Shown: positions 22,148 through 60,279 of the stretch, piece after piece
Numbering within the stretch: the stretch's first letter is position 1
Layout of the letters: the number at the start of each line of letters is the position of its first letter
Origin: Rhizodiscina lignyota
Taxonomy: Eukaryota
Assembly: GCA_010015805.1 (NCBI GenBank)
Contig: ML978121.1
Span: forward strand, 1,612,001 to 1,676,000
Reading direction: 5' to 3'
DNA: 64,000 bases
Made by a program: the position numbers and the translations under genes
The notes under the pieces: generated by a model
Told to the model about the DNA's origin: nothing
Databases searched by the model: none
What the model saw: the letters and a program-made list of their open reading frames with translations, nothing else

Positions 22148-24295
22148 ATGTCCTACTTTACTCCTCACGGGTACGACCATGGCGACTTCACCACATGGCC
22201 GCCGATGCCGGAACCGCTGCGAAGGTACGCTAGGTTGCAACAGAACCTTTCCGTCATAGTCCTAGGAAAAGAGAAGAAACTGACAGAGTTTCTCAGTGAA
22301 TTCATCACCCTCAGTATTAAACAGCAGCCTCGGCAGGCACTAGTAGCAGCTCCTAAGAAGGAGAAGGGTAAGTAGCTGCGGATTGGAAAGTTAGAATGGA
22401 TGAGACTGACAACGGATCAGCACGAAAGCCAATAGATCCTCCTGTCGTCGTTCAGATGCAAGTCCAGAGACAAGCAGATGCCACGCAGTACGTTCATGCA
22501 CGATCACAGATGCTTACGAACACCGCCTAACATTAACCTGTAGGATGTTCCTTCACAATCCATTCCTCTTCGTCGTCGCAACGTTGGCGTATGAGAACGG
22601 TCAAAGTGTTGCTGGACAAGGCAGCCAACGCCTCATTGGAAGAACAACATCTTCGCTACATCGGCTGAAAGACATTGATGAGCTGGGTAACTGGGGAGAT
22701 GGTTCGTGTTACGTTCCACAGCGCTAGTCCTCTGCAAGCTAACATGAGGTGCAGATGGTGGGTTCTTTGTCTTTGGTGACCTTTCTGTCACTGTCACGGG
22801 CAGATATCGACTTTGCTTCAGTTTATTTGAACTCGATAAGTTCGTCTTCTCCACAGCGCTCATCGAACCAGTTCTTACAATAGCAACAGGGACGAAGGGG
22901 TAGTAACCCCTCTGCAATCGATACAATCTGGCGTGTTTGATGGTTAGTGCTAGGACCTTTGAGGATATGCGTTCGATAAAATAGTAATTAATATCCTTTA
23001 GTTGTCACTTCCAGAGACTATCTCGGTCTGGACGAGTCTACAAATCTGACGAAAGCATTTGCGGATCAGGGCGTTCGACTGAGGCTAAGGAAAGAAGTTC
23101 GAACCGTCGGGTATGAATGTAGTTTACCTATGATAGCTGTAGCTGACTGGTGTATAGGATGCAGCAATCTCGTCGAGGAACGAGGAGTACTTTGGACACT
23201 GACGATCGAAACATACTCCCCAAAGTGGATGATTCACCCAGCGAAAACAAGCTAAAACGACCTGGCTCCGATAGCCCGCGCCCTGCGAAACGTATGAAAT
23301 CAGAATTTGGCCCAATGTTCCCGGGCGTGAAAAACAATACGCGGGGTTGGGGCGCATTTAGGAGAGAGGATATGGAGACATGGTGTGGAGCTGAGGAAAG
23401 GACTTCGTTTGCAATCGCATCGCCAATGGCGCTGGACCAGAGATCCTCCAATCCTTTTGCGTATTCGGCTTCGAACATGTTCACGGGCAGGCCATATACG
23501 CCACCACATCTGCCCAGTATCACCCAACCAATGGCAGCAATGCCAACGCCAGCGCCAACAGACTGGCAACGAAATGAGGCTGCACCCCAGAGACCACTCC
23601 AACCTGGATTCAATACTAACGTACTTTCTTCACCTAACATGGCCATGCAGTCAGGCAGTATCGTTCATCCTTCGTTGTCGGGACAGCCCCATCACGAGCA
23701 GAACCAGTATCAACCGAGCTCTGTGTTTGAATCTCCACCAACCTTTACTCGTCAACAGCCTGTTCGCACCCCGCAAAGATCCTTCGTACAGCCACAAGGC
23801 ATACCTCCCTCGCCGCCATATACCTCGCATCAAAATCGACAATTTCATTTTGGGGCCAGTCCTGCACGCCATCCGTATGGTGAATCCAGCAGAATGCAGA
23901 CGGGCTATTTCGACAACGTTTCTCGTGCACCGGACCCTTTGGTGGCAGATCAGAGGCCACAGGGCACAGAAGAGGCTCTTCAAGCTCTTGCAAGCGCGTC
24001 GGAGCAGCGGCCGTATCTAGCACAATCTGGCATCGGCGGCAACGATATACCTGGGGCTTTGGGCGAACCTGTGACTCTAGGCGCGTCTCAGCAATCCGGA
24101 GCTACCACTTTCGATGGCCAACACCCTATGGCTTCTGCGCAGCACGTTCAGAACTCCCTGCCGCAAGTGAGGAACACATATCAGATTCCCGGGATGGCTG
24201 GCATGGGTTTTGAGGCTGCGCCTGGTCATCAGCTACAACAGAATTTCCGCTCTGCAGCTGCTCCAACGTCGCTCAACTGGGCTGGGATGCCGTAG
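22148..24295 (+). CDS. vosA: Velvet-domain transcription factor, VosA-like (N-terminal velvet, long P/Q-rich C-terminus); ~8 exons
   Basis: Spliced exons give [10 protein letters not shown]...[11 protein letters not shown]...FLHNPFLF...[10 protein letters not shown]...[11 protein letters not shown]...[11 protein letters not shown]...[21 protein letters not shown], the velvet-domain motifs. The last exon is ORF 23150..24295. Confidence 0.82.
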
Positions 24296-25112
24296 GTACT
24301 ACTAGGTCGGTGCTGGTGGTGATGATGGTCGGAAGGCTTACGGAGATGTAGGGAAATAAGCGGACTGCCGTCATTACAAAGCACTGAAAAGGCAATGTCT
24401 GAGGAGTTGATTTTGAATTGTTAGCGATTGGGCGAACGGCGGACCTCTGTTCGGCATTACGAGGCAGTTGAGCATTGCGTCTGCCATTGAGCGAGACTAC
24501 GGAGTATTGCTTTCCTTTCTTTCTTTCACCTTGCTTGCTGTTTTACATTGGGTGCCCGGGAAACAGGACGGATATCCCTTCTCCCGAGGCGAGTTAAAAT
24601 AGATTTCTACAACGGGGTGGCCGCCGCCCTTGCATGTTTCATTCTTACCAAGTCAGCAAGCCGAATTGGTGTGGACTTTGTAGTCCAGTGGAGAGTCAGC
24701 ATTACGGAGTGAGACTGTAGCGTTGACACAAATGGAGTAAAGTTTCAAAATCTTTCATATTTCTAATTACAAGCGGATTAAACCAATAATCCCTTCCTCA
24801 CCAAAGTTCTAGAAATGCGGACACCCATTGCCGTTGTGTGCGGCGCAAAATGCAAACGTCATCTACCAAGGACCGTCGCAGACTAATTCTCTTCCTTCTG
24901 CATTCGCACTTCCATTAGAAATTAACGAAGCTGATAGTGTCCCCGAGTTCCCGATCGGCCGTTTGCTGAGTGTCGCGGATCGGTCTGGCCTTTCTTTGTT
25001 TGACGGGCCTCGATCCAAACGATAGGCCGTTACTCCGACAATATCTTACAACCAACTGACCAATTGGAACGCCTAGGCCGTTTGCAGTCATCAACAGTAC
25101 CCTCTCCCCAGC

Positions 25113-27395
25113 TCAGATGGCAATGCCGTTCGCCTGAGGTGGCAAGCCCATGGAGGAGTTCCGACTCGATGTGCTCAACGGCGGACTCGACATGCCGTCC
25201 ACAGGCTGATAGTAGCATCCAAACATATGGTTCGAATTTTGATCCCCGGCCGGAAGCTCGAGTCTCGGCGTATCCACGCGCTTCAGCGAGAAGGATGGCT
25301 TCTTCTCCATCTTCTTCTGCAGCATCATGAGGAGTCTCTCTTCTGCCAGCTGTTCATAGTGCTGCACGTCGTCATAGCTGTCCCGCTCCTCCTCGTCCTG
25401 GAGGCTGCTGTCGACGCGGCGGTGAGTTGCGAAGCGCAGTGGCGTCTGGGTGGCTTTGACCTTGCGCACAAAGTTGAAGCGGCGGGAGTGGTAGCGCGTG
25501 GAGCGGGGGCTGTAGAAGTCTTTCGCCATCTCGCTGAGCTCAGCTGCGCGGGCGGTGGCGAGCACAGCGGGGGACAGCTCCTGCTTCGCTTTCCACAGGA
25601 CACGGCCTGGCTTTCCGGATTTAACGACCACGGCAACGTGGTTGCGGATGCGCTTCTCGAGGATGGCGCCTGTGCCGGGGAAGACATGGTCAACGAGGCC
25701 GATGGATCGCGCCTCAAATGGTGATATCGGTGTCATAGAGCGGAGAATCTCGGTGGCCTTGTCCTTCCCGCAGCGGCCAGAGTACGAGATCGAGTGATAT
25801 TCTGAGCCGTACAGACCGATGCCACGGTATGCGGGATTAAGGACGACATCTGAGCCAGCAATCACGAGATCACATGCGGTGGCTAAGGCACAGCCACCAG
25901 CAGCGGCGTTTCCTCGGACACCGGCAATCGTGAGGATTCCTTTCGCTGGGAACTCGTGCAAGAGGTAGTGCACGACATCGTCGATGCGGTTGATGTTTGC
26001 CCAAGATTCACTCGATGGGTCCTTGTGTGCCTCGATCACGTTCAACGCAATGCCGTTGCTAAAATACGATCCGGCCATGAGAATAACCGCTTTGATTGGG
26101 TTCTTTGCGGTTGAACATGAAAGGATGTAGTCCATCGCATCGATGAGATGAGAGCACTGATTCGTAGCCATGGCGCCATTGTAGAAGTCGAAATAGAGAT
26201 ACGCTGCTCGTTTGTTCTCGCCGTAGTCGGCGAATTCAACCCAGACTTCCTGGAATGTCGGGTACGGGGATTTCGCCCAGTCGTTTGGAAGGTCCCATTG
26301 CAACTGGCGCACCTGAGTAGCGTTCATAATGCCCAGCTCGAGGAGGCCATGTACGGCCGGTACCTTGGGCCAGAGGGCATTGTCTTGTGCTCGCTTTTGT
26401 CTTCGGACATGGGTGATCCAGATACCTCGTCCGTCACATGTCGCGATGCACACGGCCTCGTTCCTGGTAGCGACAATGGTGCCTGGTGCAGCTCCTGGAA
26501 CACTTCCTGGGTTGGGTCCGCCAACAGAGTCTTCGATGATGCCTCCGTAGATGTAGAGGCTCTGTCCGAAAACTTTGCTCAGTGCTCCTGGCTGAGAGTC
26601 ACCACACCGAATACGACGCGAGATTTGTTGAGCATTGTGGCGGAATGGATCAAAGTCGCGTTGCGCTGCCTTTAAGAGCGGTCGGTGGAATAACCGTCCA
26701 CCCTTGAAAGGCATCTTGTTCTCAACTGAGAGGATCTTGTAGTCCGGGTGTGCTCTCAAGTTCGGGGAAATCCTGCTCCTGGACGATCGCGACAATGAAC
26801 GGACGTCCAGATCCATTTCTGTTGCAGTGTAGTCGGGAGACGGCGGTGGGTCGCGATGGGCCGCCTTCTGGATTCTGGCAACTGCCGTCAGACATGCTGA
26901 TATGGCTGCGCGAGAGACGAATCCACGGTAGAGTTCCGACTTGGTCAAACCAGGTTGGTCGATATTGATGGGAAACTGCTCGAAAGCCCAGACGGGACCA
27001 GCATCGAATTCTTCAATCGCCTGCAAAACGGTAACACCCCAGTGAGTCCGGCCGGGTCGGCATGTCTCCCCGTCCAAGCTCTTCAGTAGCTTTGATGGAT
27101 CTTCGACCGATCCATCGTCGCCCATGAGGACCCAGTCCAACGCGCTCGGGCCGACATCACCGGGAGGGCCAGGATGAATGATCAATGTGAGATAGGTGGT
27201 GTAGAGCTCTCTCGGAACGCGAGTAGTGAGGAAAGGGCAGATAATGAGATCTGGACGCGACAGTTCCGCAGCAGTAATCATCAACTCGTCCGACAGGGCA
27301 TACTCGACGGTAACATCGTGTGACGTAGACAGGGCAAGGTATAGACGCTGCGAAAGGGAATTATGAGCGGTGCATAGGAAGAGGATCTTCATCAT
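25113..27395 (-). CDS. hypX: HypX/HoxX homologue (formyltransferase-like + crotonase-like fusion), intronless
   Basis: Motifs MKILFLCTAHNSLSQR, IIHPGPPGDVGPSALDW, WGVTVLQAIEEFDAGPVW, YFDFYNGAMATNQC, FSNGIALNVIE, ESWANINRIDD, GNAAAGG, VVLNPAYRGIGLYGSEY. Confidence 0.93.
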   Translation of the reverse strand: MMKILFLCTAHNSLSQRLYLALSTSHDVTVEYALSDELMITAAELSRPDLIICPFLTTRVPRELYTTYLTLIIHPGPPGDVGPSALDWVLMGDDGSVEDPSKLLKSLDGETCRPGRTHWGVTVLQAIEEFDAGPVWAFEQFPINIDQPGLTKSELYRGFVSRAAISACLTAVARIQKAAHRDPPPSPDYTATEMDLDVRSLSRSSRSRISPNLRAHPDYKILSVENKMPFKGGRLFHRPLLKAAQRDFDPFRHNAQQISRRIRCGDSQPGALSKVFGQSLYIYGGIIEDSVGGPNPGSVPGAAPGTIVATRNEAVCIATCDGRGIWITHVRRQKRAQDNALWPKVPAVHGLLELGIMNATQVRQLQWDLPNDWAKSPYPTFQEVWVEFADYGENKRAAYLYFDFYNGAMATNQCSHLIDAMDYILSCSTAKNPIKAVILMAGSYFSNGIALNVIEAHKDPSSESWANINRIDDVVHYLLHEFPAKGILTIAGVRGNAAAGGCALATACDLVIAGSDVVLNPAYRGIGLYGSEYHSISYSGRCGKDKATEILRSMTPISPFEARSIGLVDHVFPGTGAILEKRIRNHVAVVVKSGKPGRVLWKAKQELSPAVLATARAAELSEMAKDFYSPRSTRYHSRRFNFVRKVKATQTPLRFATHRRVDSSLQDEEERDSYDDVQHYEQLAEERLLMMLQKKMEKKPSFSLKRVDTPRLELPAGDQNSNHMFGCYYQPVDGMSSPPLSTSSRNSSMGLPPQANGIAI

Positions 27396-29359
27396 GGACA
27401 CAGAGCACGCGCTGAGCAATGGTACGAGAAGTAAGGGCGCGAGTCAGAGAACTGACAGGAGGATTTGCAACTTGCAAGGTCGGATCGCAGAAAGTTAAAT
27501 GGAGATTTAAACCCTTATGAAGCTGCGAGGGAGGCACCGCAAGCCGTGCCATCTTGACAGCTCTTGGAACGCCCCTTTTCCTCCCGCGTGTTGGACAGGC
27601 ATGGTTTTGATGAGCGAAATCATCGTCCTGATGTGTGGCTGCACTAAGCGAAGCAGCGCCAATCATGGCGGAGTGACTGGCGAATGTTGCTCTTGCGCTC
27701 TGAGTGGCGCTCCCGTCAGGTATCGGTGGACCGTCGCCAATATCTCGTTTCTTACGCGAGTGCCGTCATCTCCGCACACGAAATCACGCATGACACGGAG
27801 CCGCGCTCCTTTCGGCGACTCTGATGCGTTCTACAGATCGACTTCCGCGGGAGCGAGGGGCTTTGCGTCGAGATTGTGTTGTCGAGTCGATAGCTTTTAC
27901 GAGATGAAGCTGATTTAGCGCCCGACCCGGTCAGGCCGGACTCCCTCCGGTCGAGTGCGAGCCCCACAGGGCTGCCCCTATCCTGACTCTCGGTACCCCC
28001 ACAACAAATTCTAGCGCTCCCTTTTACGGCTCACAATGGCTCCAAGGAAGCTTGACTCCAGGCACCGCTGCTGCTCGCAGAGCTGATCGGCGTCCCGGTG
28101 GAGAGAATGCTTTTACTGCCGATAGAGCACGCGTCTGCCGTCCGCCCGCCACAGCGTTCGAAACCCCAGCTATGGCGTCTGCCCTCGTGGTTGGGCGTCA
28201 TTTCGTGGCTCAAGTCTGCTCAAGTCTTGGGGAAAAGTCGTACGAGATTTTGATGTTTGGGCTGAAATGGTGGGCTTTGGCAGAAATGCGATATCTGAGG
28301 GCGCACTTAGGTCGTGCTGAACAAATAATGAAGGATTCCTCACAGCAGCTACCGACCCTCCTGTGCCACGGCTGATGACCTGATTCTCAAATCTCAATTA
28401 GCTGGACGACCGAATTCGAAAGGGCCGCCTGATGTTGGCGACGATAAAGAGAAGCTGTCGAAGCTGTGATGCGCCCGGTCTCACTTTAGCGACGCCGACG
28501 TTGACGGCAAACTCCAATGGGCCCCAAAGCAACGCCGCTCCACGCCTATCGGGACGCCTATCTGAACATCCGCAGCCCAGCAAGGTAGGACCGGATCTAA
28601 AACAGTCACCTGCGCAAGTGGCGATGATCGTGAGACCCTATATTGAAGCATTTAAGCCTGTAAATCCAAACGAGATTGAGTAGGATTCACAGGCAGAGAT
28701 CGACGGCGTTTGAGTGATGGTGTTGAGCTGCGGGATTAGAAATACGGAAACTTCTGAGCTCCCACTCGGTTGACACGCTCATTTTGAGCAAGCCAGTAGG
28801 CCGAAATGGTTGGCATCGATAACAAGAGTGCTGACACAAACTAGTATGCCTGTTATTATTTACGCTAGATACAATCATGAATCTTCGAGATGGACTGCGC
28901 ATGCTTCTTCCACGTTTGAGCTCATGACGCTGCTCCCGTATGAGTGGGATGATCTTCTCGCCAAACTTAACCAACTTAGTAGTTTGAGAGTTCTTACGTC
29001 CTCAAATGTAACGAGCCACTGCACGATGATATGCTTGCTCTACTCGTCTAGTTTTACTTGGTCATCAGTTCTGGCTCATCCGGTAAACATGAGCTGAGAT
29101 GCAGAGAGGAAAAGGCCGTTATAGCGCTCGTCATATTGCCTATTTCACGGCACTGATGCCGTGGTAACGAAAGCGGACAAGGCTCGTTCGTGCTTCAATG
29201 GTGGATCGATCTGAATGGAAGTTTGTGCGATGGAGTTCGAGGGGCTCGGAGTAAAGGACACTGTTCATTCGTGCTAGATATATTTAGATGTCTTCTTCGA
29301 TTACACAAATGGCCTTCTGGACCTCTGCAATACATTTGTCGCTGGCTCCGCTGAGCGAT

Positions 29360-29983
29360 CTAGCTCCGATGCAAGAGCCATTGTGAAGAGACACTGCCAA
29401 CGACGCGGAAGCTCTTGAAGAGCCCCAAGTACAAATCGAAGGTTGCTGTCGATACTGGTCCCCGCTGAATTCGGATCTCCATTGATCTCAGGTTTGCTCC
29501 GTATTGGAAAGGCTCACCAAGTGTTCCTGCCGTTGTTGCAAGTGCCTCAAGCCCATCCGCGATGAGCTCGACGTCGTCGCCGAAAATGGTGTGGAGGCAC
29601 AAATGCAAAGAATGAGATGGCGAACTGATGAAGCATTCCTGGAAGGGGTAGATGTCGAAGATCCGTGTGATCGGCGACAAATATTTTGCAGGACTCCCAG
29701 AAAACATAGCGGACTCCCTGATTCAGACGTTTGCAGTTAACCGGAGCCACTTGAGCTGCAGAAGGACGCCGGGTCCGCTTGCGTCGTTTTCCAGCTCTTA
29801 AGACAAATTCATAGGACCTCCATAAAGCCAGGTAAGAGGAAATATTACATCATAAACACAAATCCTGAGTTCCGGACGCAGACGAAAGAAAAGGCTAGTG
29901 ATTTGCTGATGAAAGTTTTCGTTAATGTGTTCTATCGTGCTTTGTGGATGTTTTAAAAACAAAAAGATATTAGAATACTTCAT
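29360..29983 (-). pseudogene. Disrupted paralogue of the 43614..44405 F-box-like protein
   Basis: QITSLFFRLRPELRICVY, then a stop at 29800..29798, then frameshifted CKRLNQGVRYVF, then HLCLH...GANLRSMEIRI. These match QSPFFNKLPCELRLEIY, CKRLCVEA, HLQLN and GNLRSLEIHI in the intact gene. Confidence 0.6.
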
Positions 29984-30901
29984 ATTTCAAGGACTGGACA
30001 TTCTTTGATGATGTGCTTAATGTGCGTCAGGCCGCGAAGATGTGCTGACGAGAGCGGCGTAATAATTACCAAAACCCGACATGGTAAGTTATAAAGAGGT
30101 AGAGAGCTTGATTATGAGATGTATCAAGGGATATTTCTGACAATGAGTTGACCTGTAGTTTTCCTTGAAAGGGAATGAAGTTGAACAAGTCAACACGTTA
30201 GCCTCACAAGCGTCACGGCTTGATGAGACGGGATGTTTGGCGCTATCTTTCTTGGTCCAGGAACTTGATGTATCAGCTAATATTTCGCACATCGTTATTG
30301 GATAGATGAATTTTCATAGATCTTGGTATTGTTGATATGCAAGTTGTATGGGAGAGACCCATGTTGTTGTCGTGTCCATTTTCGCGAGGGTCTGCTCCGC
30401 AGTATAGTAATATGGGAATGTTGCGAGCTTATGTTGGCGTTCTTGTGTATCTGGACTCTTCAGATTCCTCTAACAACCAGTTTGTAATCATCATGAAGAA
30501 ATAATAGGTGCAGAACTGCACGCCTGGTTCCCTGTTGTCGAGAGAACAGCTGGCATCGGGAAGCTGCGTAATGCAGGGGACAACTAGTCATGTAAGGCCA
30601 AATAGCCCGGACTATATTTAAGCATTTACTAGTCCATATTAGATCGCCCCGTTCCTAGAAAAAGGGGTAAGGTAAGTAGATAACGATAAAATTCTCATAA
30701 TTGCGTCATTGTTTGATTATCTACGCGTTCAAACCCTACTGTAATGACTTCGTACTTGTCTACTACGTCGTGGTTAGGAACACACCAGGCTTTCGAATCT
30801 TTCGACATTCTCTATACAGATACGATTACTTCACAGCATTCTCACGAGTTTGTTTTCTCTCAAATTCTTGTTATTCAAAGACGAACAGCTCGCAAGCGAC
30901 T

Positions 30902-32329
30902 TCAGCTGACCAACTTCGCCAGGCTTGAGATACCGTGCTTCTCCAAGTGCTTCACGGTATCACAAATCTGCTTAGCGCGCTCTTCGCCGTAAGCGTCCAC
31001 AGTAATCCCCATGAACTTAGTTGCCACACCCTCCCAGGTGATTGGATTCTCCGGCTCTCCTAACGGCGCCTTCAAATGTTCTCGAACCGTCGTACCGTCT
31101 TCGTACTCGACATCCAGACTCGACTCGAGCAGACTGTACGAGTCGTTGACCTTCACAGTAACTCGATCGAGAAGTTTATTGACGGCTGGGTCGCCAATGT
31201 GGTCATACACCTTCCAAACAAGCCCAGAGCCGTACAACCATGCTACAACAGTCTGAAAATAGGAACTGAACTGCGCGTCAACGATGTTGTTCGGATGTGT
31301 CTTATTCGGGACTGCAGTGCCGACAAGCGCGTAGCCCCCCTCGCCGATCCAAACCGTGAGGCTTTTCACTTCCGCGTTGCTCTTCTTCCTCATCTCATTA
31401 GCCAGCTCAATCTGGCCGTGGGTTATGCGACATGCGGGGAATGGCTTAATAGCACTCGTTACAAACATCCAATGCTCTTTGAACGGCCCGATTTTAACTT
31501 GTGGAACAGCTTTGCTATTGCCATAGGCGTTTAGAAGACCGTACTTGCCTTCAAGTGGTTCCGCAGCGCCAAGTCCTCCGGATTCTGCCATTGCAGTGCA
31601 GATGAAAGCATTGTGTGCAGAGATTCCGGGATGGAGTCGTTTGTTCCAGCTTCCATTAGCAAGATATTGCATAGATCCTGAAGCCATGGAGATTGCAAAC
31701 CCAAAGGCATTTTCAATCACTGCTGCGCTCAGCTTTCTTAAAGAACTGATCGCGGCAATGGCGCCAAACAGGCCGGCAGTACCGGTATTATGGAATCCTC
31801 TCTCGTACCCAGTAGTACTAATCGAACAGCCAATTCGGCAGGTGATTTCGTATCCGGCTGCCGCCGCTGTAAAGAACTCTTCTACCGTCGACGTGGGTTC
31901 TTTCTCGGCTTCTGCGAGAGCAGCAGAGAAGACGCTCACTCCAGGATGTAGCGTGGCCACAGCGTGTGTATCATCAAAATCAAGACTGTGGGCGAAAGCA
32001 CCGTTGAGCATCGCTGCGTAGTGCGGAGACCATGACTGTCCGTTTGCCATGACAGTAGCCTTGCCGCCTCCGTCAAGTGTCTTGATTGCGTCTAAGAATG
32101 GCCCAGTAGATTCTGCCAGTGTCGTTGCGCCAGCAGCAACTCCAATATAATCAAGAAAATATGTTCGAAGCTTCCCAATTGCGTCTGATGGGAGATCGCC
32201 GAATTTTAAACTGGCAACGAAAGATGCGCAATCTTTTGTCGAGAGCGTCGATCCCCGGTCCTCCTTAGTTCCATTCACGCCTATGCCATTCTGATGATCG
32301 TTTTGCTGAGGTACAGACGTGCCATTCAT
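30902..32329 (-). CDS. MmgE/PrpD family protein (2-methylcitrate dehydratase / aconitate decarboxylase / epimerase superfamily), intronless
   Basis: Motifs HSLDFDDTH, TLHPG, GFHNTGTAG, WNKRLHPG, IKPFPACRITHG, AQFS and PLGEPENP. Confidence 0.92.
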   Translation of the reverse strand: MNGTSVPQQNDHQNGIGVNGTKEDRGSTLSTKDCASFVASLKFGDLPSDAIGKLRTYFLDYIGVAAGATTLAESTGPFLDAIKTLDGGGKATVMANGQSWSPHYAAMLNGAFAHSLDFDDTHAVATLHPGVSVFSAALAEAEKEPTSTVEEFFTAAAAGYEITCRIGCSISTTGYERGFHNTGTAGLFGAIAAISSLRKLSAAVIENAFGFAISMASGSMQYLANGSWNKRLHPGISAHNAFICTAMAESGGLGAAEPLEGKYGLLNAYGNSKAVPQVKIGPFKEHWMFVTSAIKPFPACRITHGQIELANEMRKKSNAEVKSLTVWIGEGGYALVGTAVPNKTHPNNIVDAQFSSYFQTVVAWLYGSGLVWKVYDHIGDPAVNKLLDRVTVKVNDSYSLLESSLDVEYEDGTTVREHLKAPLGEPENPITWEGVATKFMGITVDAYGEERAKQICDTVKHLEKHGISSLAKLVS

Positions 32330-32599
32330 AGCGCCGTTTGTAGTTCCTTGCGGTACGTAGATTCGCGAAGATTGTCCCCAGTTGAAGTGCCTTGATGTGA
32401 CAACTAATTACCTCCGTGCTCACTTATTACAGATTTTCGATCCTTCTCTTCACCTCAATATGCTGTAATGAATATGTCCAAGTTGAATTAAAACTTCTTG
32501 CTCTTCTCCATTGTGAAAATCAATGTCTGTCCCGCGGTCTATGAATCGGCTTGTTAGTCTCCGCAACCCTGTCGATCATGCAAAGCTCGATCTCCAGAG

Positions 32600-32613
32600 C
32601 CGAGTTCTCCGCA
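32600..32613. promoter_or_regulatory. CCG-N6-CCG direct repeat (CCGAGTTCTCCGCA), candidate Zn2Cys6 site
   Basis: Lies in the divergent PrpD/aconitase promoter. The identical 14-mer occurs at 57341. Confidence 0.3.
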
Positions 32614-33084
32614 TTAAACAATCAGCATTCAACAGAATGGCCTCTGGTAGGGCTTAGCTTGATCAAAAGCCAGCTATTGGGTCTAGGGGGTGCCAAAATG
32701 TGGGGTGTATGATGCGGACTGACCGCCGACCAACGACATCGGAAGCACCGATCACACGTGTCGGAGTTCCACCTTCAACCCCTTCGAGGTCGCACCGAAA
32801 GCTTCATTCACTTAGCTTGACATGGATTCTCCGTCCCATCTGACAATGGCCACACTGCGGTGTCTCCGTGAATGCGAAATGCAGTCGCGACCGGCAGTAT
32901 CAGGAGTGATGTTGTGGACCGGTCGTCGCAAATATGTACTCTGGTTATGATAGAGGACTGAACATTTTACTATTCCACCTATTCCATTTGTTCGATCACG
33001 GAGTATATCTCAAAAGAGTCCTGACGTAACATCAAGATTGCCAAAGAAGAGTCTGAAGAGACTCGTATTCTGTGGTTACTAACG

Positions 33085-35747
33085 ATGCCTGCTTTGACTG
33101 AAGACGGCTTATCTGCAGTGAAGGAGATATCACGACTCCTCCAGGACATAAGATCGATCAGTAATATCGGTCTGGCAGACACTGGTATACTTGACGGCCT
33201 CTGAAGACAGTGCCATGCTAACAATGAGAGGTAGATCTATCATCACCGCATCCGAACTTTCTCGAAGTTCTTCGCGAGGTGTCCGACAGCCTGTTGCGAA
33301 ATGGGCACACTCGTGAAGCTGAGGCCCTCCGCGACGTTTCAGTGCATTGCACTACTTCACCAGATTTCGGCGGCCTAGGATTCACACCCTCCCACGAATT
33401 CAGCAAGGCTGATGAAGCGGAGATCACTTTTCTTGTCAGTGCTTACTTAGAAGCCTTGAATTATCAAGACCGCCACGACTCGCCAATCGAACCTCTGTAC
33501 CAACGACCTGCTGGCCGCCGAGGAATGACCTTGGCCGAGAAGATATTCGCAGCCCATGATGTGGAGAGGCGTGGGGAAGTGCAGCCGGGTGACGTGATCC
33601 GTCTTGATGTTGATTGGATTATCGCCTCAGAATTATCGTGGGGTGCCATGGAGAAGACATACGATGATCTCGGAAGACCAGGCATCTTTCGGAATGATAG
33701 AGTCTGGCTCGCCGGAGATCATGTCGTCGATCCACGAGTTAGCAAGATTCCGAGGATCAAGGCGCTGATTGAGAGGAGTGAACGGGCACGACAGGTTTTC
33801 AAGTTGACAGAGTATCAAGGAATGAATGTGAGTGTTTCGTATACTTGTTCCCTTATCGTCTCTGGCTTTGGAATGATTGTGTCTGACTCTACTGAAGTAT
33901 ACAATAATGCATTCCGAGTTCTGCAGGGAGAGAGCACAGCCAGGGATGCTTATTATTGGGTCCGATTCGCATACTTGCTCTGCAGGTTCCGTGTCTAGCC
34001 TTGCAATTGGTCTTGGTGTTGCCGATGTAACGCTACCTCTTGTTACAGGAGAAACATGGATCAAAGTGCCCGAAACGGTAGAGATACGCTTCATCAACAA
34101 GCCAAAACCAGGCCTCGGTGGGAAGGACGTAATCCTTTACGTGCTAAAACAACTCAAGAGAAACACGGTAGCGGCTGATCGTGTCGTGGAATATACCGGG
34201 TCTGGGCTGAAGTTTCTTTCTTGTGACGCGCGGTTTGCAATCTCAAATATGACTACTGTAAGCTCAATTCCTATGCTTCGAAGAGCCGACTGATGCGCTA
34301 CAGGAATTCGGAGGCGTTACTGGAATCTTTGTACCCGATGATACAACGCGCGATTTCGTTGAGAGGCGTAAGAATCCTAAATACAAGAAGTATTCTACGT
34401 ACTACCGTCCAGACGATGATGCGAGATATGCCGAGAGCTATATCATCGATCTGAATCAAGTGGAGTCTTTTGTGGCGCGCTACCCCAAACCGGACGATGT
34501 TGTCCCCGTCAGCGAAGTCGCCGGAATAGCTTTAGATGGCTGTTTCATAGGTGCATGTACGACGGCGTATGAGGACCTGGTTCTTGCGGCTCTTGTGCTG
34601 GAGGTTGGCTTGAAGAGAGGCATGAAGCCGACGAAGCATGGGAAGAGAAAGGTCGTCCCAGGGTCGAAGCCAATCCTACACGACTTGCGTGCTTGGGGTC
34701 TTGCCGACGTATATGAACAAGCTGGATTTGAGATTGGCGTTCCAGGATGCAGTTACTGCGTAGGAATGTCAGCGGACAAAGCTGGTCCAGGGGAGGTTTG
34801 GCTCAGTAGCCAGAACCGAAACTTTGAGAATAGAATGGGCCCTGGTACGCTGATTCCAGGCCCTACAGACCCTCTGTTTGGCTGCTAACAACGCGTTAGG
34901 CGCTATTGGCAGCATTGCTTCGGCCGTCACGGTAGCCGCGAGTAGTTTCGATATGACCGTTACAGACCCGAAACCTCTTCTCGATGAGATCGATATGAAT
35001 CGCCTTGGAGAGATACTGGCGATTAGGGTGCATCCCGAAACTCCATTGCGATACGTGGAACCGGGCTCGAGAGACACGGTTGCCAAACCGCCGCGTGAAC
35101 CGGCTTCGACCGACGAAGAGCTTCAAGGGACGGATAATGCTTCAGAGGCCGCTGATCCTGTGTCCCGAGTTATCAGCGGCAGAGTACAAACTTTGGGTGA
35201 CTTTATCGACACCGACGCCCTCGCACCGGCTGAAGCGCTTGTCGGCAATCTCTCCAAGGAAGAGATCGGCCAATACTGCCTCTATCACACGCACCCTGAC
35301 TTCCGCCGTCGCATCAAGGAAGACGGCCTTAATATCGTAGTCGCTGGTAAAGCTTTCGGCGTAGGTTCGTCTCGCGAAAATGCTGTTACCGCGCTGCAAG
35401 GAGCGGGAGTCAAGTGTGTGATTGCCCGCTCCTTTGCTTTTATCTACGCGCGCAATCAGCCCAACCTCGGAATGATGGGTATCGTCATGACTGATGGGAA
35501 ATTTTATGAACTGGCACACGACGGAGAAGAGATAGAGATTGATGTTGATCAGCGGGTTGTAAGAGTTGGCGGCCAGGAGTTTGGATTTAATTTAAGCGAA
35601 CTGGAGAGGCAGCTATGGGAATGTGGTGGGATGAGCCCGGCGTTTACAAGATGGGGAAAGGATTTGTTAGGAATCATGACTAGCAAAAAGGTGAATGTGC
35701 AAGGAGCTGAAGGAGCGTCCGCACATAATGAACAACTTCAATGGTAA
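33085..35747 (+). CDS. Aconitase-family [4Fe-4S] hydro-lyase, fused LeuC/LeuD (isopropylmalate isomerase/homoaconitase-like); 5 exons
   Basis: Motifs [26 protein letters not shown]; Fe-S ligands FIGACTT and [20 protein letters not shown]; swivel domain [10 protein letters not shown] and GVGSSRENA. First intron 33185..33234. Confidence 0.9.
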
Positions 35748-45032: not shown

Positions 45033-46010
45033 TCACACCCCTTTTGCAAACGCAAATCCTCCTGCAGCCTTGTCGAACTTGACGCACTCTACCAGACCAA
45101 CAGCGTTGAAAAGCCCTTTGACGCCCTCTTGTTTCTGTCTCTCTGTAACTTTCATATCCCCCGTACCCTTCAACTGTGCACATGCGGCACTAGTACTTTC
45201 ATACACAGCAGTCAGCGCCAGACCGGGATAAATGATTAGCTTGAAACCCATCTGCTGCGCTTCTTGACTAGTCATGTGCGGTGTTGCTCCTCCTGGGACG
45301 CTATTCAGTAGTACAGGTGTAGGTGCGAGGTCGATACAAATCTGGCGACACTGGTCAAGCGATGTTGGTCCTTCCAGGAATCCTACGTCTGCACCGATCT
45401 CAATTGCTTTCCTGAGACGCCCGCAAGCTTCGCTATAACCGAGCTGCTGAAGTGCGTCTGTCCGAGCGATTAGAACAATATCCTGACCGAGAGTCTGCCG
45501 CATCTCTTCTCGAGCCAGGACCGCAGCACGGATTCGTGAGAGGAATGTCTCCTCATCGACCAGTTCTTTCCCGGCTAGGTGACCGCATCGCTTTGTCTGT
45601 ACTTGGTCTTCTAGATGCATTGCAGCGATTCCAGCAGTTATGTATGACTTGACGGTCCGCGCAACCATGATCGGACCACCGTAGCCAGTGTCCGCATCTG
45701 CGATCACTGGCACCGTGCGGTCCAACGAAGCGATCATCGCCGCGTTTTCGAGCATCTCATTCAGAGTTATAACACCGAGATCTGGCATACCCAGCCGCGA
45801 AACTGCTGTGCCTGCCCCTGTCTTTGATTCCGGTTAACATCACGAAGGAGCCTGAAAGTCAGTGAGGCGTACAACGTAAAGACAATCAAATCCTTCCCTT
45901 AGCGCCAGGCGGGCTGTGAGCCCGTCATAGACTCCTGGGCATATGGTAATCTTGCCATCTCTGGAAAGAAGCTCATGAAGACGAGCTGCTGCTGACTTGG
46001 GACCGGTCAT
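45033..46010 (-). CDS. Isocitrate lyase/PEP mutase family C-C lyase (2,3-dimethylmalate lyase / methylisocitrate lyase-like); 2 exons
   Basis: Motifs CPGVYDGLTAR, TGAG, IADADTGYGG, HLEDQVQTKRCGHLAGK and IARTDA. LIIYPG carries Pro where oxaloacetate hydrolases carry their diagnostic Ser. Confidence 0.9.
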
Positions 46011-49015: not shown

Positions 49016-51004
49016 TTATATCTTTCCCCCTTCAAGGAATTTCTTTGGGATTAGAACGGTCTTAGCTCTTAGATACTCCCCCAAATTTTTCGCCAACGTA
49101 TCAAGCTTGGAGCCTGAGTTATAACCTCTGTCCAACTGGTTTTTTAAAAGGAAGTGTACAGCCCGTATATTGCGCATTTCGAACCTGTACACTTTTCCAC
49201 CGGAGTAGTCCTCATCTCCTAAAAGCTCTTTGATTTTCGCAATCGACAATAGACTCCGAAGCCAATCGAATTGCTCCTGTGTGCTCACGTAGAAGCCGAC
49301 GTTTGCGTCGGAAGCCTGGGAATACAATCAGCGGAACTCAAATGTTTCTTCCGAGAGCGATGTACCTTGTCTCCGGACCTAGCCAGCGCGATATATCCCA
49401 AAGGTGCTTCTATGGCCTCTCCGAACAGATCCAGCGAGACTGGATCTGGCGTATCGTAGGAGTCTTGTGCTGGATATTCGCGAGTTTCAGGCGGAAGCGG
49501 TATTTTTGTGGTTCGCTCATCATCGAAAAGCAAATGGAGCTGATGATTGCACACGTTCTGAGGGATGAGCGTCACGAAGTACTCAAAATAAGATTTCGCG
49601 GTCGACTGCCGCAGATCATTGCTCCGGCTCACTCCCGGACAGGATTGCAGAACAGTCTCGTAAAGACGCCTGCTGAAGCCATCTGGGAGGCTCGGATTGA
49701 ACAGCTCGGCGTCTGGTGCCTGGGCAAATATTCGAAAGTCCACAGTTGCTAGTTCTTGATTTCGCGAGTTGATCGGGGATGTTCCGTGGACGTGGAACTT
49801 AAGAAGGGAGAACTTTTTTATCAGCTCTTCGCCAATTGCGTATCTCGCCTGCTCCTCCATCCACTGGCACTTCTCTTCGATATCGAGGCCAACAAGGTAA
49901 AAATGCCATCTGCAAGGACTCAGTGAGGCGTTCTAGAAAGAGGTAAGGTTCCTAAATACTCTGCCTGGTATCCTCCATGCGCTGTGACTCCGACGCGGGT
50001 TGTTGGGGGTGGAGGCAAGCCTTCAATGCCACTGACGTGAACTCTGTCTTCACCTCTTTGCTCCAACTGGATATTATGGATATCTGCGACAGTATCGGAG
50101 TTGAAGTAGAGCGGTCCGGAGATTTCGTAAACAAGCTGGGCGGTGACTGTTTCGGTGTTGACGACACCACCTGTATCCTTCTCTTTGACAATGTCGAACT
50201 CTCCTTTCCAGTCAACCTCAGCGATGGGAAAGCCCATATTCAGGTGTCGCCCTGTTCTCATTAAGTCTTTGAACCGACTGTAATACTTTTCTATCGTTAG
50301 CTTGTTCTATTAATCATGAGTCCATGTACGAACCCCTCCAGTTACAAATGCTGAACATTCTATTATGTGGCCCGCTATCAGAGCTCCAGCTAACTCTTTG
50401 TATTGGTCTGCAGTCCAGGAGTGCCACCATGCTGTAAGGCCTATTGTTGGACCTGCGTCACTAACTCTCCCGCAGATGACAATGTCGGCCCCCTGGCGTA
50501 GCGCTTCAGCGATTCCAAGGCTGCCCAGATATGCCTGAGCGCAAATTGGTTCGAACCCCCATTCCTTGAGGGTCTTACCGTCAGTTGTGCTCCGAAACTC
50601 TGTCCCATCCGCGGCCATTTGCTTGAATTGTAAAGTCACGTCGTCCCCTTCTACCCAAGCCACTTTCATTTGATATCCCGCATCTTGAATGATCTGTTTG
50701 CACACCTTTGCAAGCAACTCAGTATCGCTTGCGCCAGCATTGACTACGAGTTTCGCGCCGTTGCGAGCAAGATCATGGATCGCGGGTTCGAAGCATAGAA
50801 GGAATGTGCTGGCGTATTGTGCATTCTTCTTTCGTTCGTCCAGAGGCTGCTGTTCGAGACTGTCGCCAAATTTCTGCAAAAGCCGTTGTTTCCCAGCTCC
50901 ATAACCGGTCATAACATTCTGCATTCATCAAATCTTCGTCATATACGTAGATAACATCTCCGCTGTAAGAAACGTACTTCGCTTAACCAGTCTCCGACAA
51001 TGAT
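49016..51004 (-). pseudogene. AtuA/DUF1446 family gene 1, body only (first exon displaced to 54543..54620)
   Basis: IIVGDWLSE|NVMT, VNAGASD, GADIVICGRVSDA, AGHIIECS, RSGDKASDANVG, LDTLAKNLGEYLRA. The body splices without stops, but no start codon or RIAGCSG motif lies directly upstream. Confidence 0.8.
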
Positions 51005-51426: not shown

Positions 51427-51661
51427 GTTCCAGCACGTCTGATGGCAATGATGTATTTGTCGCGAAGTACTCCGTGCATGCCACCACGAGTCACTAGTGT
51501 TGACATCGATACTTGGCATCCTTCTTGTAACCCGATTCAATAAATCAAGAGTAGAGACGCTCAGTTAATGAGACTGAGTTGTCTAGGTTCTCCAGCGCTA
51601 CATCGCATGCCTCAGAATATATACTCTGAAGAGTAATTTAGCAACAGTTAGAATTGCTGTG

Positions 51662-52612
51662 ATGGCGGCACCAAGAACGAAGAATCCAGTTCCAGAATGG
51701 GTCGAAGTACCTTATCCTCACATCGAGTACAGCCTCATCTCCTTCCCTCGCAAGCACATCCTTCTCGTCACGATAAACCGTCCCCAATATATGAACTGCC
51801 TTCCTGTGGAAGCGACCATTGAGTTAGGAGCGCTGTGGAAGTGGTATGATAACGAGCCCCAGCTGAGGTGTGCGGTCTTCACAGGAGCAGGCGAGAAAGC
51901 ATTCTGTGCGGGAATGGATCTACGTCAGAGGCTTGATATCATCAATACCAACGATATTGCACTTGAGTACCCACAAGGGGGATTTGGGGGGATGAGCAAT
52001 CGAACGGGCAAGAAGCCTATTCTGTCTGCTGTGAACGGGCATGCTCATGATGAGATTCTCCTCCTGCTAGGCTGGTAGTAATTAAGCTCATATGTTCAAG
52101 GCGGCGGCTTCGAGATCGTTCTTAATTCAGACGTTATATTTGCCTCTCCCAACGCTACATTTCGATTGCCCGAAGTCCTCCGCGGCGTAAGCGCTCTCGC
52201 GGGTGCATTGCCTCGCTGTATGTGGCTCTTCGGGAATCACCGCACTATGGACTTGATCCTTACCGGGCGGCAGCTAACAGTGGAGGAAGCCAAGGAATGG
52301 GGTTTGGTCAAGGATATCGTCCCACTGGAGGGACTGTTGGAGAGAGTAATAGCGTATGTGGAAGAGATTGCGTCACATAGTAAGTAATTAACTCCAAATA
52401 TGCTGGAAAAGAACTTATATATTTTAGGCCCAGACGCGGTCATTATCTCCAGGATAGCGGCGAGAGAAGCATGGGAAACGGGTGTGAGCAGGGCCACAAT
52501 GCGAGGCCAGGAGATATATGCGGAGGCGATGTTGAGGAGTAAAAATTCTGCGGAAGGCCTTGCAGCATACAACGAAAGGCGAAGCCCGAAATGGCTCCCG
52601 TCTTACTTGTGA
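51662..52612 (+). pseudogene. Enoyl-CoA hydratase/crotonase (CaiD-like), probably disabled by a splice-donor mutation
   Basis: AFCAGMDL, KPILSAVNGHAH|GGGFEI, LPEVLRG. Intron 52050..52100 starts ATGAGA instead of GTGAGA and contains an in-frame TAG. Confidence 0.7.
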
Positions 52613-57611: not shown

Positions 57612-60279
57612 ATGGCGCCCGTTAGTTACGAAACATCGAATGGAGTGGATGGCGTTAATGGAATCAATGGAACGAATGGAACAGCGAAAAGGCCAATCCG
57701 AGTTGCGGGCTGCTCTGGAGGTAAGCGTCCTTCGGTATCATCGGAGTACTTGCTAACTATGAGGACAAGGCGTGTATGATAGGAAGCGCGCCATTCATGA
57801 TATGGCGAAGAATGAGGAGATAGACTGCATCACCGGAGATTGGATGAGGTTTGTCAATTCTTTCCCATTTCCCTCGCAAAGTCTTGAAGCCTGTTAAACT
57901 AGCCATTTTTCTCTCTCCATTTTCCCCCCTCTCTGTTCTTTTCCCTCTGCTGAACAACTCGACAATGACGGAAACATGAGCTTATACTTGGATGAGTGAA
58001 TGTATGTCATTCCTTTCTCTCCAGTAACGCCGCAAATACTAATTTGCTTCGCAGGTAACATGTATGTGACACCACGTGCCCGTCTTGCGAATTCCAACGT
58101 TAACAGCTCTATACAGGACCCTTCGTGGCTCCGACAAGCGGGATCGACTGGCCAACAAGGCGATGAACTCGGGGTCCTCAGTAGCGAAGGGTTATGAGCC
58201 ATACTTCCTCGAGGAACTAGACCCTGCTATCCCATGGCTCGCGAAGAATAACGTAAAGGTCGCTGTCAACGCTGGAGCCTCTGATGTTCATGGACTTGGG
58301 GAAGCCGTCAAAGAACTGATTAAGAAGCACGGCGTCGACCTGAAAGTTGGCGTTGTCGATGGCGATGACGTAACGGATGCCGTCTTGGATCTTTACAAGA
58401 AAGGTCGGTACAATCATTGGAGCTCCTATCAGGCCTGATGCGAGTAAAGACTGACGACATGCGCAGGAGAACCTTTCTACAACCTCCCCCAGAACAAGGC
58501 TATTCAAGATTGGGGTTATGATCCAATCTGTGCACAATGTTACCTCGGCGGCACGGGAATTGCTGCATGCTTTGAAGGAGGAGCAGATATCGTTCTTTGT
58601 GGCCGAGTAGCCGATGCCTCTGTCACACTGGGGGTTTCAATGTGGTGGCATGGCTGGAAACGAGAAAACTTCCAGCAGTTGGCTGCCGCATTGATGGTCG
58701 GGCATATCATTGAGTGTTCGACGTACGCGACAGGCGGCTATTACTCTGGATTCAAAGACTTGGGTGTGAATGACACTGATATGGGTTGTGCGTTGAATTG
58801 CTCAGAAATCGTAGCGTCTGGCTGACAACCGCATACAGATCCTATCGCGTCCATCGATGAGAAAGGAGAAGCAGTAATTACGATGGAGAAGAACAAACAC
58901 GGACTTGTTTCTGTTGCAACAGTAGCTGCTCAACTACTCTACGAGATTCAGGGACCACTCTATTTTAATTCCGACGTAACGTACGTCACTTTTGAGGCAT
59001 GAGGGCTGTCAATAGCTCACAGCGCTGGGCGGCCTTGTTTGGACCTCTGCTAACTTTTATCGGAAATAGAGCGTCCATCGAAGACATGGTTCTACGTCAA
59101 ATTGGCGAAAATGCAGTCCATGTTTCGGGAGTGAAAGGCCTGCCGCCTCCCTCAACGACTAAAGGTACGGGAATAACAACCCCCCCCCCCCCTTTTTTTT
59201 TCCCTCTCTCCTTCTGGCGGCCCCATAGTAACGTTATCGCAGTTGGAATCACAGCAAAGGGCGGCTATCAAGCAGAGTTTCATTTTTACCTTACTGGGCT
59301 CGATATTGAGGAGAAAGCAGCCATGGTGGAGCGACAAACGAAGGCGTTGATGGGTGACCACATCTCGAAGTTTTCGTGCCTGAAGTTCATGATTGCCGGC
59401 ACTGTTCCTGATGATCCGCAATCCCAAGAGGAGGCAACTGTGGATATGCGAATCTTCGCACAAACTAGAGATCCGGATATTCTGAGCGGAAACAACTTTG
59501 TGGACTCCGACCGAGGGAGGTGAGTGTCAAGGACCCCAATCATTCCGAAAAGAGACTGAGACAGTATTGCAGCTTCGCGCGCTTCTGCATTGAGAACTTG
59601 CTTCAAGGTTATCCTGGTTCTACTATGGCTCCCGATATGCGGACGGCCATTGGTCGCCCGTTCTTCGAATACTGGGTGACTCTCATGCCACAACACTTTG
59701 TGAAAGAAACAGCGCATCTACCTGATGGCACAGTCATTGATATTCCAACCCCTTCAGTAATGAAAGAATATCCAAGAGAGCAGCCGTCGTATGACACGAA
59801 AGATCCTGTCGACCTGTCCTCATTCGGCCCAACCACACGTGCTCCGCTCGGCTACATCGTTATGGGTAGATCGGGTATGTGTACCTTAACCACCACAAGA
59901 GCGTCTATGCTAATACTTCAACAGGCGACAAGTCCAGCAACTGTAATCTTGGCCTCTATGTCCGACACGACGATGAATGGGACTGGCTGCGATCTATTCT
60001 TAGCATCGCGAAGATCCGAGAACTGCTTGGTAAAGACGACGTTGGAAGACCCATAGAGCGCTGCGAGTTCCCCAACATTAGAGCAGTACATTTCTTGCTC
60101 AAAGACCACCTTGACAGAGGGTTTAACTCAACTAGCAGCTTTGATTCACTCGGAAAGAATTGCTGTAAGTTACGGTCTCCTATCCAAGCCCGCGCGGTCC
60201 GTTAACGAGCGCAGGTGAATACATTCGGTCTAAGCACGTTGATATCCCGAACAAGTTCCTCGAACGCGGAAGGATATAA
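57612..60279 (+). CDS. AtuA/DUF1446 family protein 2, apparently intact; 12 exons including 5- and 7-nt micro-exons
   Basis: RPIRVAGCSG, GDWMSECNMT, VNAGASD, GADIVLCGRVADA, GHIIECS, QLLYEIQGPLY, GRSGDKSSNCNLG, FDSLGKNCCEYIRSK. All 11 inferred introns restore the frame. Confidence 0.88.

Follow-up and report, generated by a model that had tools for sequence, protein, structure and literature searches.

HypX-like gene in Rhizodiscina lignyota

To our knowledge, HypX is the only enzyme in bacteria known to make carbon monoxide (CO) from the central one-carbon (C1) pool, and it has been discussed only as a hydrogenase accessory. We analysed a gene for a HypX-like protein on the reverse strand of a 64-kb stretch of the genome of the fungus Rhizodiscina lignyota (assembly GCA_010015805.1, contig ML978121.1, positions 1,612,001 to 1,676,000 of the forward strand; hereafter the window, with positions counted from its first letter). 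By every sequence feature tested the encoded protein, P0001, is a member of the HypX family. Judged by homology, its most likely activity would be the formation of CO from 10-formyl-tetrahydrofolate (10-formyl-THF) via enzyme-bound formyl-coenzyme A (formyl-CoA), without a [NiFe]-hydrogenase. The features of the locus are collected in Table 1.

The frame, taken from the open reading frame (ORF) list of the window, is open throughout, and its second methionine codon (27390-27392) is the start used by homologues. The best database match of P0001 was P0002, a protein of 738 residues named 'ClpP/crotonase [Rhizodiscina lignyota]' and encoded on a 4.06-Mb contig. It is identical to P0001 save for the start at Met2 and the absence of residues 187-207, the part covered by an in-frame GT...AG stretch of 63 nt. 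The 5′ site of this stretch, GTCTCC, is weak relative to the fungal consensus, and a 79% identical relative (P0003) retains a similar in-frame segment. The preliminary description of this DNA had reported an intronless ORF of about 760 residues; the open frame stands, but 'intronless' is unproven since the public gene model excises the 63 nt. Splicing there leaves both catalytic domains untouched. A single unbroken hypX frame was found in four of six related loci with DNA, the other two (L028 and L029) being split elsewhere.

Table 1. Features of the HypX-like gene and its immediate surroundings. Residues are those of P0001; mean identity to P0001 is over 81 ascomycete rows.
Feature	Residues	Position (strand)	Mean identity	Remarks
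HypX-like gene	1-760	25113..27395 (-)		one 760-codon frame and stop (25113-25115)
Formyltransferase-like N-subdomain	2-175	26871..27392 (-)		CoA contacts Ser13, Gln16, Arg157
His74 codon	74	27174-27176 (-)		
Asp80 codon	80	27156-27158 (-)		
Fungal-clade-specific insertion	93-116	27048..27119 (-)	0.50	GDDG...R116
Asp131 codon	131	27003-27005 (-)		
Variable interdomain linker	176-215	26751..26870 (-)	0.17	
63-nt in-frame GT...AG	187-207	26779..26841 (-)		intron in public gene model; inside the hypervariable linker
Formyl_trans_C-like subdomain	251-335	26391..26645 (-)		SDSQPG with CoA 3′-phosphate contacts Ser267, Gln268
Crotonase/ECH-like putative decarbonylase domain and C-terminal helices	396-664	25404..26210 (-)		basis Pfam and alignments; Asn406 (FYNGAM), fungal-type Cys542, Lys645
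Tyr523 codon	523	25827-25829 (-)		
Glu532 codon	532	25800-25802 (-)		
Fungal-specific C-terminal tail	665-760	25116..25403 (-)	0.26	96 residues
DEEE motif of the tail		25386-25397 (-)		
Phe-x-Cys-Tyr-Tyr motif of the tail		25209-25223 (-)		
Velvet-family gene (VosA-like)		22372..24295 (+)		multi-exon; convergent with hypX
Upstream 3.5 kb		27396..30901		no recognisable gene; presumed promoter

Domains and catalytic residues

Pfam recognised two families in P0001 and no other, Formyl_trans_C at residues 251-335 (E 9.4e-09) and ECH_1 at residues 431-620 (E 3.1e-16). The N-terminal formyltransferase core fell under the Pfam threshold, yet it aligned with residues 1-92 of Aquifex HypX, and on this basis both HypX domains described earlier are present. 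The motifs that had been quoted for them are readable as HPGPPGDVGPSALDW (74-88), EEFDAG (128-133) and NPAYRGIGLYGSEY (520-533). In a search of the PDB the top match was Aquifex aeolicus HypX (6J0P, chain 6j0p_A; E 4.7e-104), in three stretches spanning residues 2-664, compared with E 4.2e-09 or worse for ordinary enoyl-CoA hydratases. NCBIfam returned generic crotonase matches only, all below threshold. The aldehyde dehydrogenase domain and the acyl carrier protein (ACP)-like domain of ALDH1L were not found in P0001 by Pfam.

For Aquifex HypX, Muraki et al. (2019) propose that His74-Asp80-Asp109 transfer the formyl group of N10-formyl-THF to CoA and that Tyr416/Glu426 decarbonylate formyl-CoA, and report that combined mutation of Gln15, Arg131, Ser194, Gln195, Asn306 and Arg542 loosens CoA (PMC6802093). 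HypX is reported to form formyl-CoA and release CO in vitro, according to a 2025 review (PMC12134894). We aligned P0001 with the Aquifex protein, correcting its numbering for a 20-residue tag on the PDB chain. All five proposed catalytic residues are in register and identical, none being misaligned: Aquifex His74, Asp80, Asp109, Tyr416 and Glu426 correspond to His74, Asp80, Asp131, Tyr523 and Glu532 of P0001. The CoA contacts are identical at six of seven positions (Ser12, Gln15, Arg131, Ser194, Gln195 and Asn306 in Aquifex; Ser13, Gln16, Arg157, Ser267, Gln268 and Asn406 in P0001), and at the seventh P0001 has Lys645 for Arg542.

The catalytic pentad was invariant in all 103 eukaryotic rows, and likewise in 18 of 18 ascomycetes of a separate alignment. 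Among the 103 rows the CoA contacts were conserved in 103 (Gln16 and Asn406), 101 (Ser13), 99 (Ser267), 98 (Lys645) and 94 (Arg157). Mean identity to P0001 over 81 ascomycetes was 0.77-0.79 in the N-domain and 0.70 in the ECH core (64-79% for the catalytic domains overall), compared with the much lower values of linker and tail (Table 1). In four comparisons with related loci, the proportion of nonsynonymous differences (pN) was 0.18-0.29 (0.08-0.16 in the N-domain) against 0.77-0.80 for synonymous differences (pS); synonymous sites are saturated, and the two values are therefore given without a ratio. The enzyme part of the fungal protein is clearly under strong purifying selection.

Fungal-specific additions

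Three features set the fungal proteins apart. The first is a 24-residue insertion between LDWVLMG and HWGVT, which occurred in seven of seven fungal rows and none of 13 others in a 20-row alignment. The second is the segment that reads SEYW...LPKRVG in other groups and SEYH...Y-GRCG in fungi, with Cys542 invariant in 18 ascomycetes. The third is the C-terminal tail, which begins directly after the core and is 63-483 residues long among the 15 fungal-clade rows printed. Two motifs stand out in it. Asp667 of DEEE was conserved in 94 of 103 rows and Cys727 of an aromatic-x-Cys-Tyr-Tyr motif in 96, with Tremellomycetes having C-L/I-x at the latter site.

The C-terminal tail of Aquifex HypX lies next to 'window B', where CoA gating and CO exit have been proposed, and a complex of HypX with HypC/HypD is also described (PMC6802093). 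Because the fungal tail leaves the core where the Aquifex enzyme has window B and where bacterial HypX meets HypC/HypD, it may gate the CO exit or recruit a recipient.

Of 22 non-fungal eukaryotic proteins, 17 had the anchor motif and were scored, and 12 of these have basic, acid-poor N-terminal extensions of 25-110 residues, which look like organelle presequences, mitochondrial or plastid. Carriers include the animal, moss and charophyte proteins P0185, P0197, P0199, P0355, P0326 and P0365. None of 18 aligned ascomycete rows has an N-terminal extension, and five of ten basidiomycete rows have one. Since most of the fungal copies examined lack one, the fungal enzyme probably acts in the cytosol.

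Hydrogenase context

The 76 stop-to-stop ORFs scanned in the window contained no member of any hyp or hydrogenase family, in line with the earlier observation that the window holds no other hyp gene. These comprised 24 ORFs chosen in 9-40 kb and 52 of the 64 remaining ORFs of at least 130 residues, the 12 omitted ones overlapping scanned genes. In four of four bacterial relatives with scanned flanks (Clostridium pascui, Oceanirhabdus, a gammaproteobacterial metagenome-assembled genome and Wenzhouxiangella; 4 of 22 fetched loci), by contrast, hypX lies in a cluster with the NiFe small and large subunits, HycI, HypB, HypF, HypD and HypE. Hydrogenase maturation factors are encoded with a hydrogenase, and within the window the fungal gene is not. 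In a look-up of the ESM Atlas with bacterial HypD only bacterial clusters were among those shown, a result that says nothing on eukaryotes.

Two of the bacterial loci deserve a separate remark. In C. pascui (L001:34-11671) and Oceanirhabdus (L002:33-11671) hypX lies inside a NiFe hydrogenase/hypBFDE cluster. Both organisms are Clostridiaceae and anaerobes; HypX is generally presented as the way in which the CO ligand is made under aerobic conditions.

Compared with bacterial HypX/HoxX (A. aeolicus 6J0P, Cupriavidus necator, Rhizobium leguminosarum), which has the same two-domain layout, the same pentad and six of the seven CoA contacts, the fungal protein has no hyp or hydrogenase genes nearby, the presumed partners HypC/HypD included, lives in a eukaryotic host, and adds the insertion, the SEYH...GRCG segment and the tail of 96 residues with DEEE and F-x-C-Y-Y.

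Distribution and phylogeny

A word-indexed search with P0001 gave at least 3314 proteins at E ≤1e-10 among 8000 scored. In the best 120 of these matches every organism-named row was from Pezizomycotina (Dothideomycetes, Sordariomycetes, Orbiliomycetes), and eight rows were named 'hydrogenase maturation factor HoxX', so HoxX-like annotations do occur in fungi, as had been noted. When representatives at 50% identity were searched exhaustively, 2029, 869 and 272 proteins passed E 1e-3, 1e-10 and 1e-30, respectively. Cluster look-ups placed carriers in all three subphyla of Basidiomycota: Phakopsora; Tilletia, Ceraceosorus, Testicularia and Violaceomyces; Rhizoctonia, Tremella, Kwoniella, Cryptococcus depauperatus and Cutaneotrichosporon.

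The next group was unexpectedly animal, with Trichoplax, the tardigrade Hypsibius and the rotifer Didymodactylos. With a profile of this group we found further eukaryotes among the 120 rows listed. They include Cnidaria (Nematostella, Hydra, Montipora, Oculina), other animals (Branchiostoma, the fly Bradysia, the bivalves Potamilus and Sinanodonta, the annelid Owenia, the rotifers Adineta and Rotaria), plants and their relatives (the moss Ceratodon, the liverwort Calypogeia, Chara) and protists (Plasmodiophora and several EukProt transcriptomes). Many of these non-fungal members carry the NCBI name 'HoxX-like'. They have the same family assignment and catalytic residues as the fungal proteins, and their hosts likewise have no known [NiFe]-hydrogenase; they differ in forming a separate clan, in lacking the fungal insertion and tail, and in often having N-terminal extensions. 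No vertebrate, yeast or seed-plant names were in the match lists seen, which does not show absence there. One homologue, P0208, has an N-terminal response-regulator receiver domain, which probably explains why the label 'two-component system hydrogenase maturation factor' is used in databases.

Three trees were in agreement: a FastTree of 109 rows, a quick IQ-TREE of 75 rows and a careful IQ-TREE of 42 rows and 557 columns under LG+C20+F+G4. All are unrooted, and supports are given as ultrafast bootstrap/SH-aLRT. In the careful tree, Fungi (100/100) divide into Ascomycota (100/100) and Basidiomycota (98/92), other eukaryotes form a second clan (92/96), and named bacteria with further representatives form a third (96/96). 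The centre joining the fungal, other-eukaryote and bacterial clans is poorly supported (67/0). In the 75-row tree a single branch with support 95 splits 41 named eukaryotes from nine named bacteria. Bacterial rows were only those in the top 150 of the exhaustive search together with loci drawn by fungal motifs, which biases the latter to loci sharing GNAAAGG or WxNINRID. Left out were L017, L019, L020 and L022 (frameshifted), L021 (partial) and fragments below about 540 residues; many of the remaining rows have deviant composition.

The preliminary description had taken the enzyme to be bacterially derived. As a fungus-specific import this does not hold, since Ascomycota and Basidiomycota form one clan, a second eukaryotic clan exists, and no fungal sequence is nested within any sampled bacterial group. 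By these trees the fungal gene is older than the divergence of Ascomycota from Basidiomycota. With a root among the bacteria, a single ancient origin in eukaryotes would be the simplest explanation. A lineage known from 2-kb contigs only (P0162, with P0410 and P0411) joins the fungal stem (96/95). For P0162 just three close relatives turned up. The tail in this lineage is short and ends in F-P-C-L-I, the fungal insertion is lacking, and the lineage could be an early branch of the fungi or one related to them.

FolD fusions and the folate link

FolD, with its methylene-THF dehydrogenase and methenyl-THF cyclohydrolase activities, makes 10-formyl-THF. A FolD domain pair was fused to HypX in 13 of the 26 long homologues scanned, a sample picked for length, so that the fraction is not a frequency; 11 of the fusions are C-terminal and two N-terminal. 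In precomputed Pfam results, FolD domains were present in 9 of the 120 listed rows of the non-fungal profile. Fused forms are scattered over different clans (rotifers, protists, a Bacillota-like group and P0258), which suggests repeated fusion, and the FolD-HypX fusion probably arose several times. The fused proteins are P0293, P0308 and P0361 from rotifers, P0323, P0331 and P0362 from EukProt, and P0167, P0180, P0192, P0195, P0207, P0215, P0236, P0238, P0243, P0244 and P0258, with FolD N-terminal in P0244 and P0258. No FolD fusion was seen among nine long fungal-clade proteins scanned. Because FolD makes 10-formyl-THF, the fusions support this compound as the eukaryotic substrate.

The same fusions bear on the purpose of the enzyme, for they set it directly downstream of 10-formyl-THF production. 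HypX could be a folate relief valve that recovers THF from its 10-formyl form with no need for NADP+ or ATP, the C1 unit being lost as CO, or as formate once formyl-CoA is hydrolysed, in analogy to 10-formyl-THF dehydrogenase/deformylase. Some members match the hydrolase-type family ECH_2 (PF16113) in precomputed Pfam results, as would suit such a role. There is also a mechanistic parallel with 10-formyl-THF dehydrogenase (FDH/ALDH1L1): according to Muraki et al., the fold and His/Asp catalysis of its N-terminal hydrolase domain are common with HypX, and the formyl group is likewise passed to a pantetheine thiol, on a phosphopantetheine arm that swings to a second active site (PMC6802093). The second domain of fungal HypX, however, is of the crotonase type and not an aldehyde dehydrogenase, it would need no NADP+, free CoA would take the place of the ACP domain as thiol carrier, and by analogy with bacterial HypX the expected product is CO, not CO2. 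A simple deformylase, moreover, needs neither a two-domain CoA-tethered route nor the invariant Tyr/Glu pair of CO-forming HypX. The fusion to FolD fits a dedicated CO synthase equally well, and the long fungal copies are unfused. Fungi can also release formate from 10-formyl-THF through C1-THF synthase. We therefore consider a relief valve rather unlikely.

Proposed activity and role

We infer the activity, location and role of the fungal enzyme from its homology, conservation, selection and distribution, from the lack of hyp neighbours in the window and from the FolD fusions of its relatives, all of which were observed. By homology with Aquifex HypX, CoA would stay in an internal cavity as a prosthetic group. 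His74, Asp80 and Asp131 of the N-domain would transfer the formyl group from 10-formyl-THF to the CoA thiol, and the pantetheine arm would then swing into the crotonase-like domain, where Tyr523 and Glu532 would decarbonylate formyl-CoA; CO would be released, with CoA and THF regenerated. The enzyme would serve as a dedicated low-flux source of CO, as a signal or as a ligand for a partner, rather than in bulk C1 disposal, and the tail with its conserved cysteine is a candidate for gating or CO hand-over. For HypX-type activity together with a dedicated CO-source role in the fungus, the sequence evidence leads us to a cautious yes.

Several points weigh against this proposal. The 24-residue insertion lies near the folate site and the active-site segment around Cys542 differs from that of all other groups as well; with the long fungal stem branch (0.74 changes per column), they may indicate that substrate or product has shifted. 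The sequence of a crotonase fold is compatible with decarbonylation (to CO) as well as with hydrolysis (to formate). The idea of a dedicated low-flux source depends on the other fungal routes from 10-formyl-THF to formate. No report on activity, expression or localisation of any eukaryotic HypX was found in the searched open literature. Beyond the window, finally, the absence of hydrogenase and Hyp proteins follows the standard view, expressed in PMC11216029, that [NiFe]-hydrogenases are 'encoded by bacteria and archaea'.

If the chemistry has indeed changed, the fungal protein might pass a formyl or acyl group to some other acceptor, such as a protein thiol or a metabolite, or be a non-catalytic regulator. 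The stem branch, the fungal-only insertion, Cys542, the Cys-containing tail and the generic, sub-threshold NCBIfam matches would all fit such a shift. Nevertheless, the pentad and nearly all CoA contacts are invariant across Dikarya, the catalytic domains are the best-conserved parts of the protein, and the cavity-based mechanism (PMC6802093) has little space for a large acceptor. We regard a change of chemistry as improbable.

Within a CO-forming function, two further roles may be considered. Eukaryotic HypX-like proteins might be maturases handing CO to a so far unrecognised metal-centre or haem partner of aerobic eukaryotes, the fungal Cys tail at the CO exit replacing HypC/HypD docking, which strikes us as distinctly unlikely. 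Alternatively, they may adjust the level of CO in mitochondria or cytosol and thereby control respiration. As a possible lead, their taxonomic range may resemble that of the alternative oxidase, which is insensitive to CO and cyanide. The textbook source of CO in eukaryotes is haem oxygenase, whose fold, substrate (haem) and cofactors are unrelated to those of HypX.

We found only work on bacterial HypX, and no study of a eukaryotic one, in PMC open-access papers and bioRxiv, subscription papers and supplements lying outside the search. The phrases 'maturation factor HoxX' and 'maturation factor HypX' were not found in this literature, nor is a function on record there, as the preliminary description had anticipated. 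Two apparent hits were rejected: a Penicillium marneffei paper prints 'hypX' by mistake for hmgX (PMC4374905), and 'hydrogenase maturation factor' in an Aspergillus urease paper means bacterial HypA/HypB (PMC10100864). The existence of eukaryotic 'HoxX-like' genes is already visible in databases; new here are their breadth, the strict catalytic conservation, the FolD fusions and the fungal-specific additions. Dedicated CO formation by these proteins would suggest a folate-dependent, haem-oxygenase-independent CO route in eukaryotes, which we did not find described in the searched open literature. If the activity is true, it raises the questions of what CO serves in the carriers and which partners receive it, and the database name 'hydrogenase maturation factor' would be misleading.

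Genomic surroundings and authenticity of the locus

The neighbours of hypX are intron-split fungal genes for an ABC transporter, a HECT ligase, a velvet protein, MmgE/PrpD, an aconitase-family protein, a PPTase and a GMC oxidoreductase. The velvet gene, whose best PDB match was VosA (E 1.1e-07), has its Velvet-domain exons at 22372-23252 on the forward strand and an open C-terminal exon to 24295, which bears out the convergent arrangement reported earlier. The gene-free DNA upstream of hypX is likewise real, although about 3.5 kb long up to the MmgE/PrpD gene rather than about 2 kb as first estimated. No Pfam family in its four ORFs, no Rfam match, no tRNA and no repeats were found in it.

The adjacency to velvet had been put forward for a synteny comparison, and it proved to be local only. 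A velvet or PrpD neighbour occurred in none of seven related fungal loci, and in reciprocal tblastn nine window-neighbour ORFs were unmatched in these loci and eight of their neighbours were unmatched in the window. The related loci adjoin other genes, either an O-methyltransferase, a forkhead gene and a pyruvate-decarboxylase-type thiamine pyrophosphate (TPP) enzyme, or a PDCD2_C gene. Gene order thus offers no clue to the function of fungal HypX. The TPP enzyme, 5 kb from the L023 homologue, was considered as a source of formyl-CoA (oxalyl-CoA decarboxylase/HACL) and rejected, its best matches being indolepyruvate/pyruvate decarboxylase models. In two relatives with 57-59% identity (L026:1984-3129 and L028:4243-5397) the PDCD2_C-domain gene lies upstream of the HypX homologue, a synteny absent from the window.

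We also considered whether the gene is an artefact of bacterial contamination or chimeric assembly, or a very recent horizontal transfer. The GC content of its coding sequence is 0.562, above the 0.499 of the window, and it has no confirmed intron, both of which would agree with a foreign origin. Against this, the HECT, velvet, aconitase and ABC transporter neighbours are intron-split and fungal. A separately built contig of 24,361 nt spans 24404-33000, including hypX and PrpD, with 0 differences, and its depth of 155.5 equals that of a second contig spanning 21000-24433 with the velvet gene (153.9); it possibly comes from the same sample and is then not independent support. A protein identical outside the start and the 63-nt stretch lies on the 4.06-Mb R. 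lignyota contig. Fungal homologues number in the thousands and form a fully supported clan with Ascomycota and Basidiomycota apart, and bacterial relatives are merely 31-45% identical. These observations make contamination or chimeric assembly of the hypX locus, which the preliminary description had named as a danger, very unlikely, and we give the whole artefact explanation next to no weight.

The Logan contigs of run X1 break at 24404-24433 between velvet and hypX, with a 30-nt overlap and equal depth on either side. A 54-nt contig at this break has a loose end that looks like a sequencing adapter.

Further from hypX, genes of the MmgE/PrpD, aconitase (split) and PEP-mutase/isocitrate-lyase families lie within 15 kb at 30902-35744 and 45036-45833, and they may be a methylcitrate- or itaconate-type organic-acid cluster. 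Two copies of an AtuA-family gene (acyclic terpene utilisation) are found about 9 kb apart at 49288-50924 and 58996-60053, with an enoyl-CoA hydratase fragment at 51587-52075 beside the first copy.

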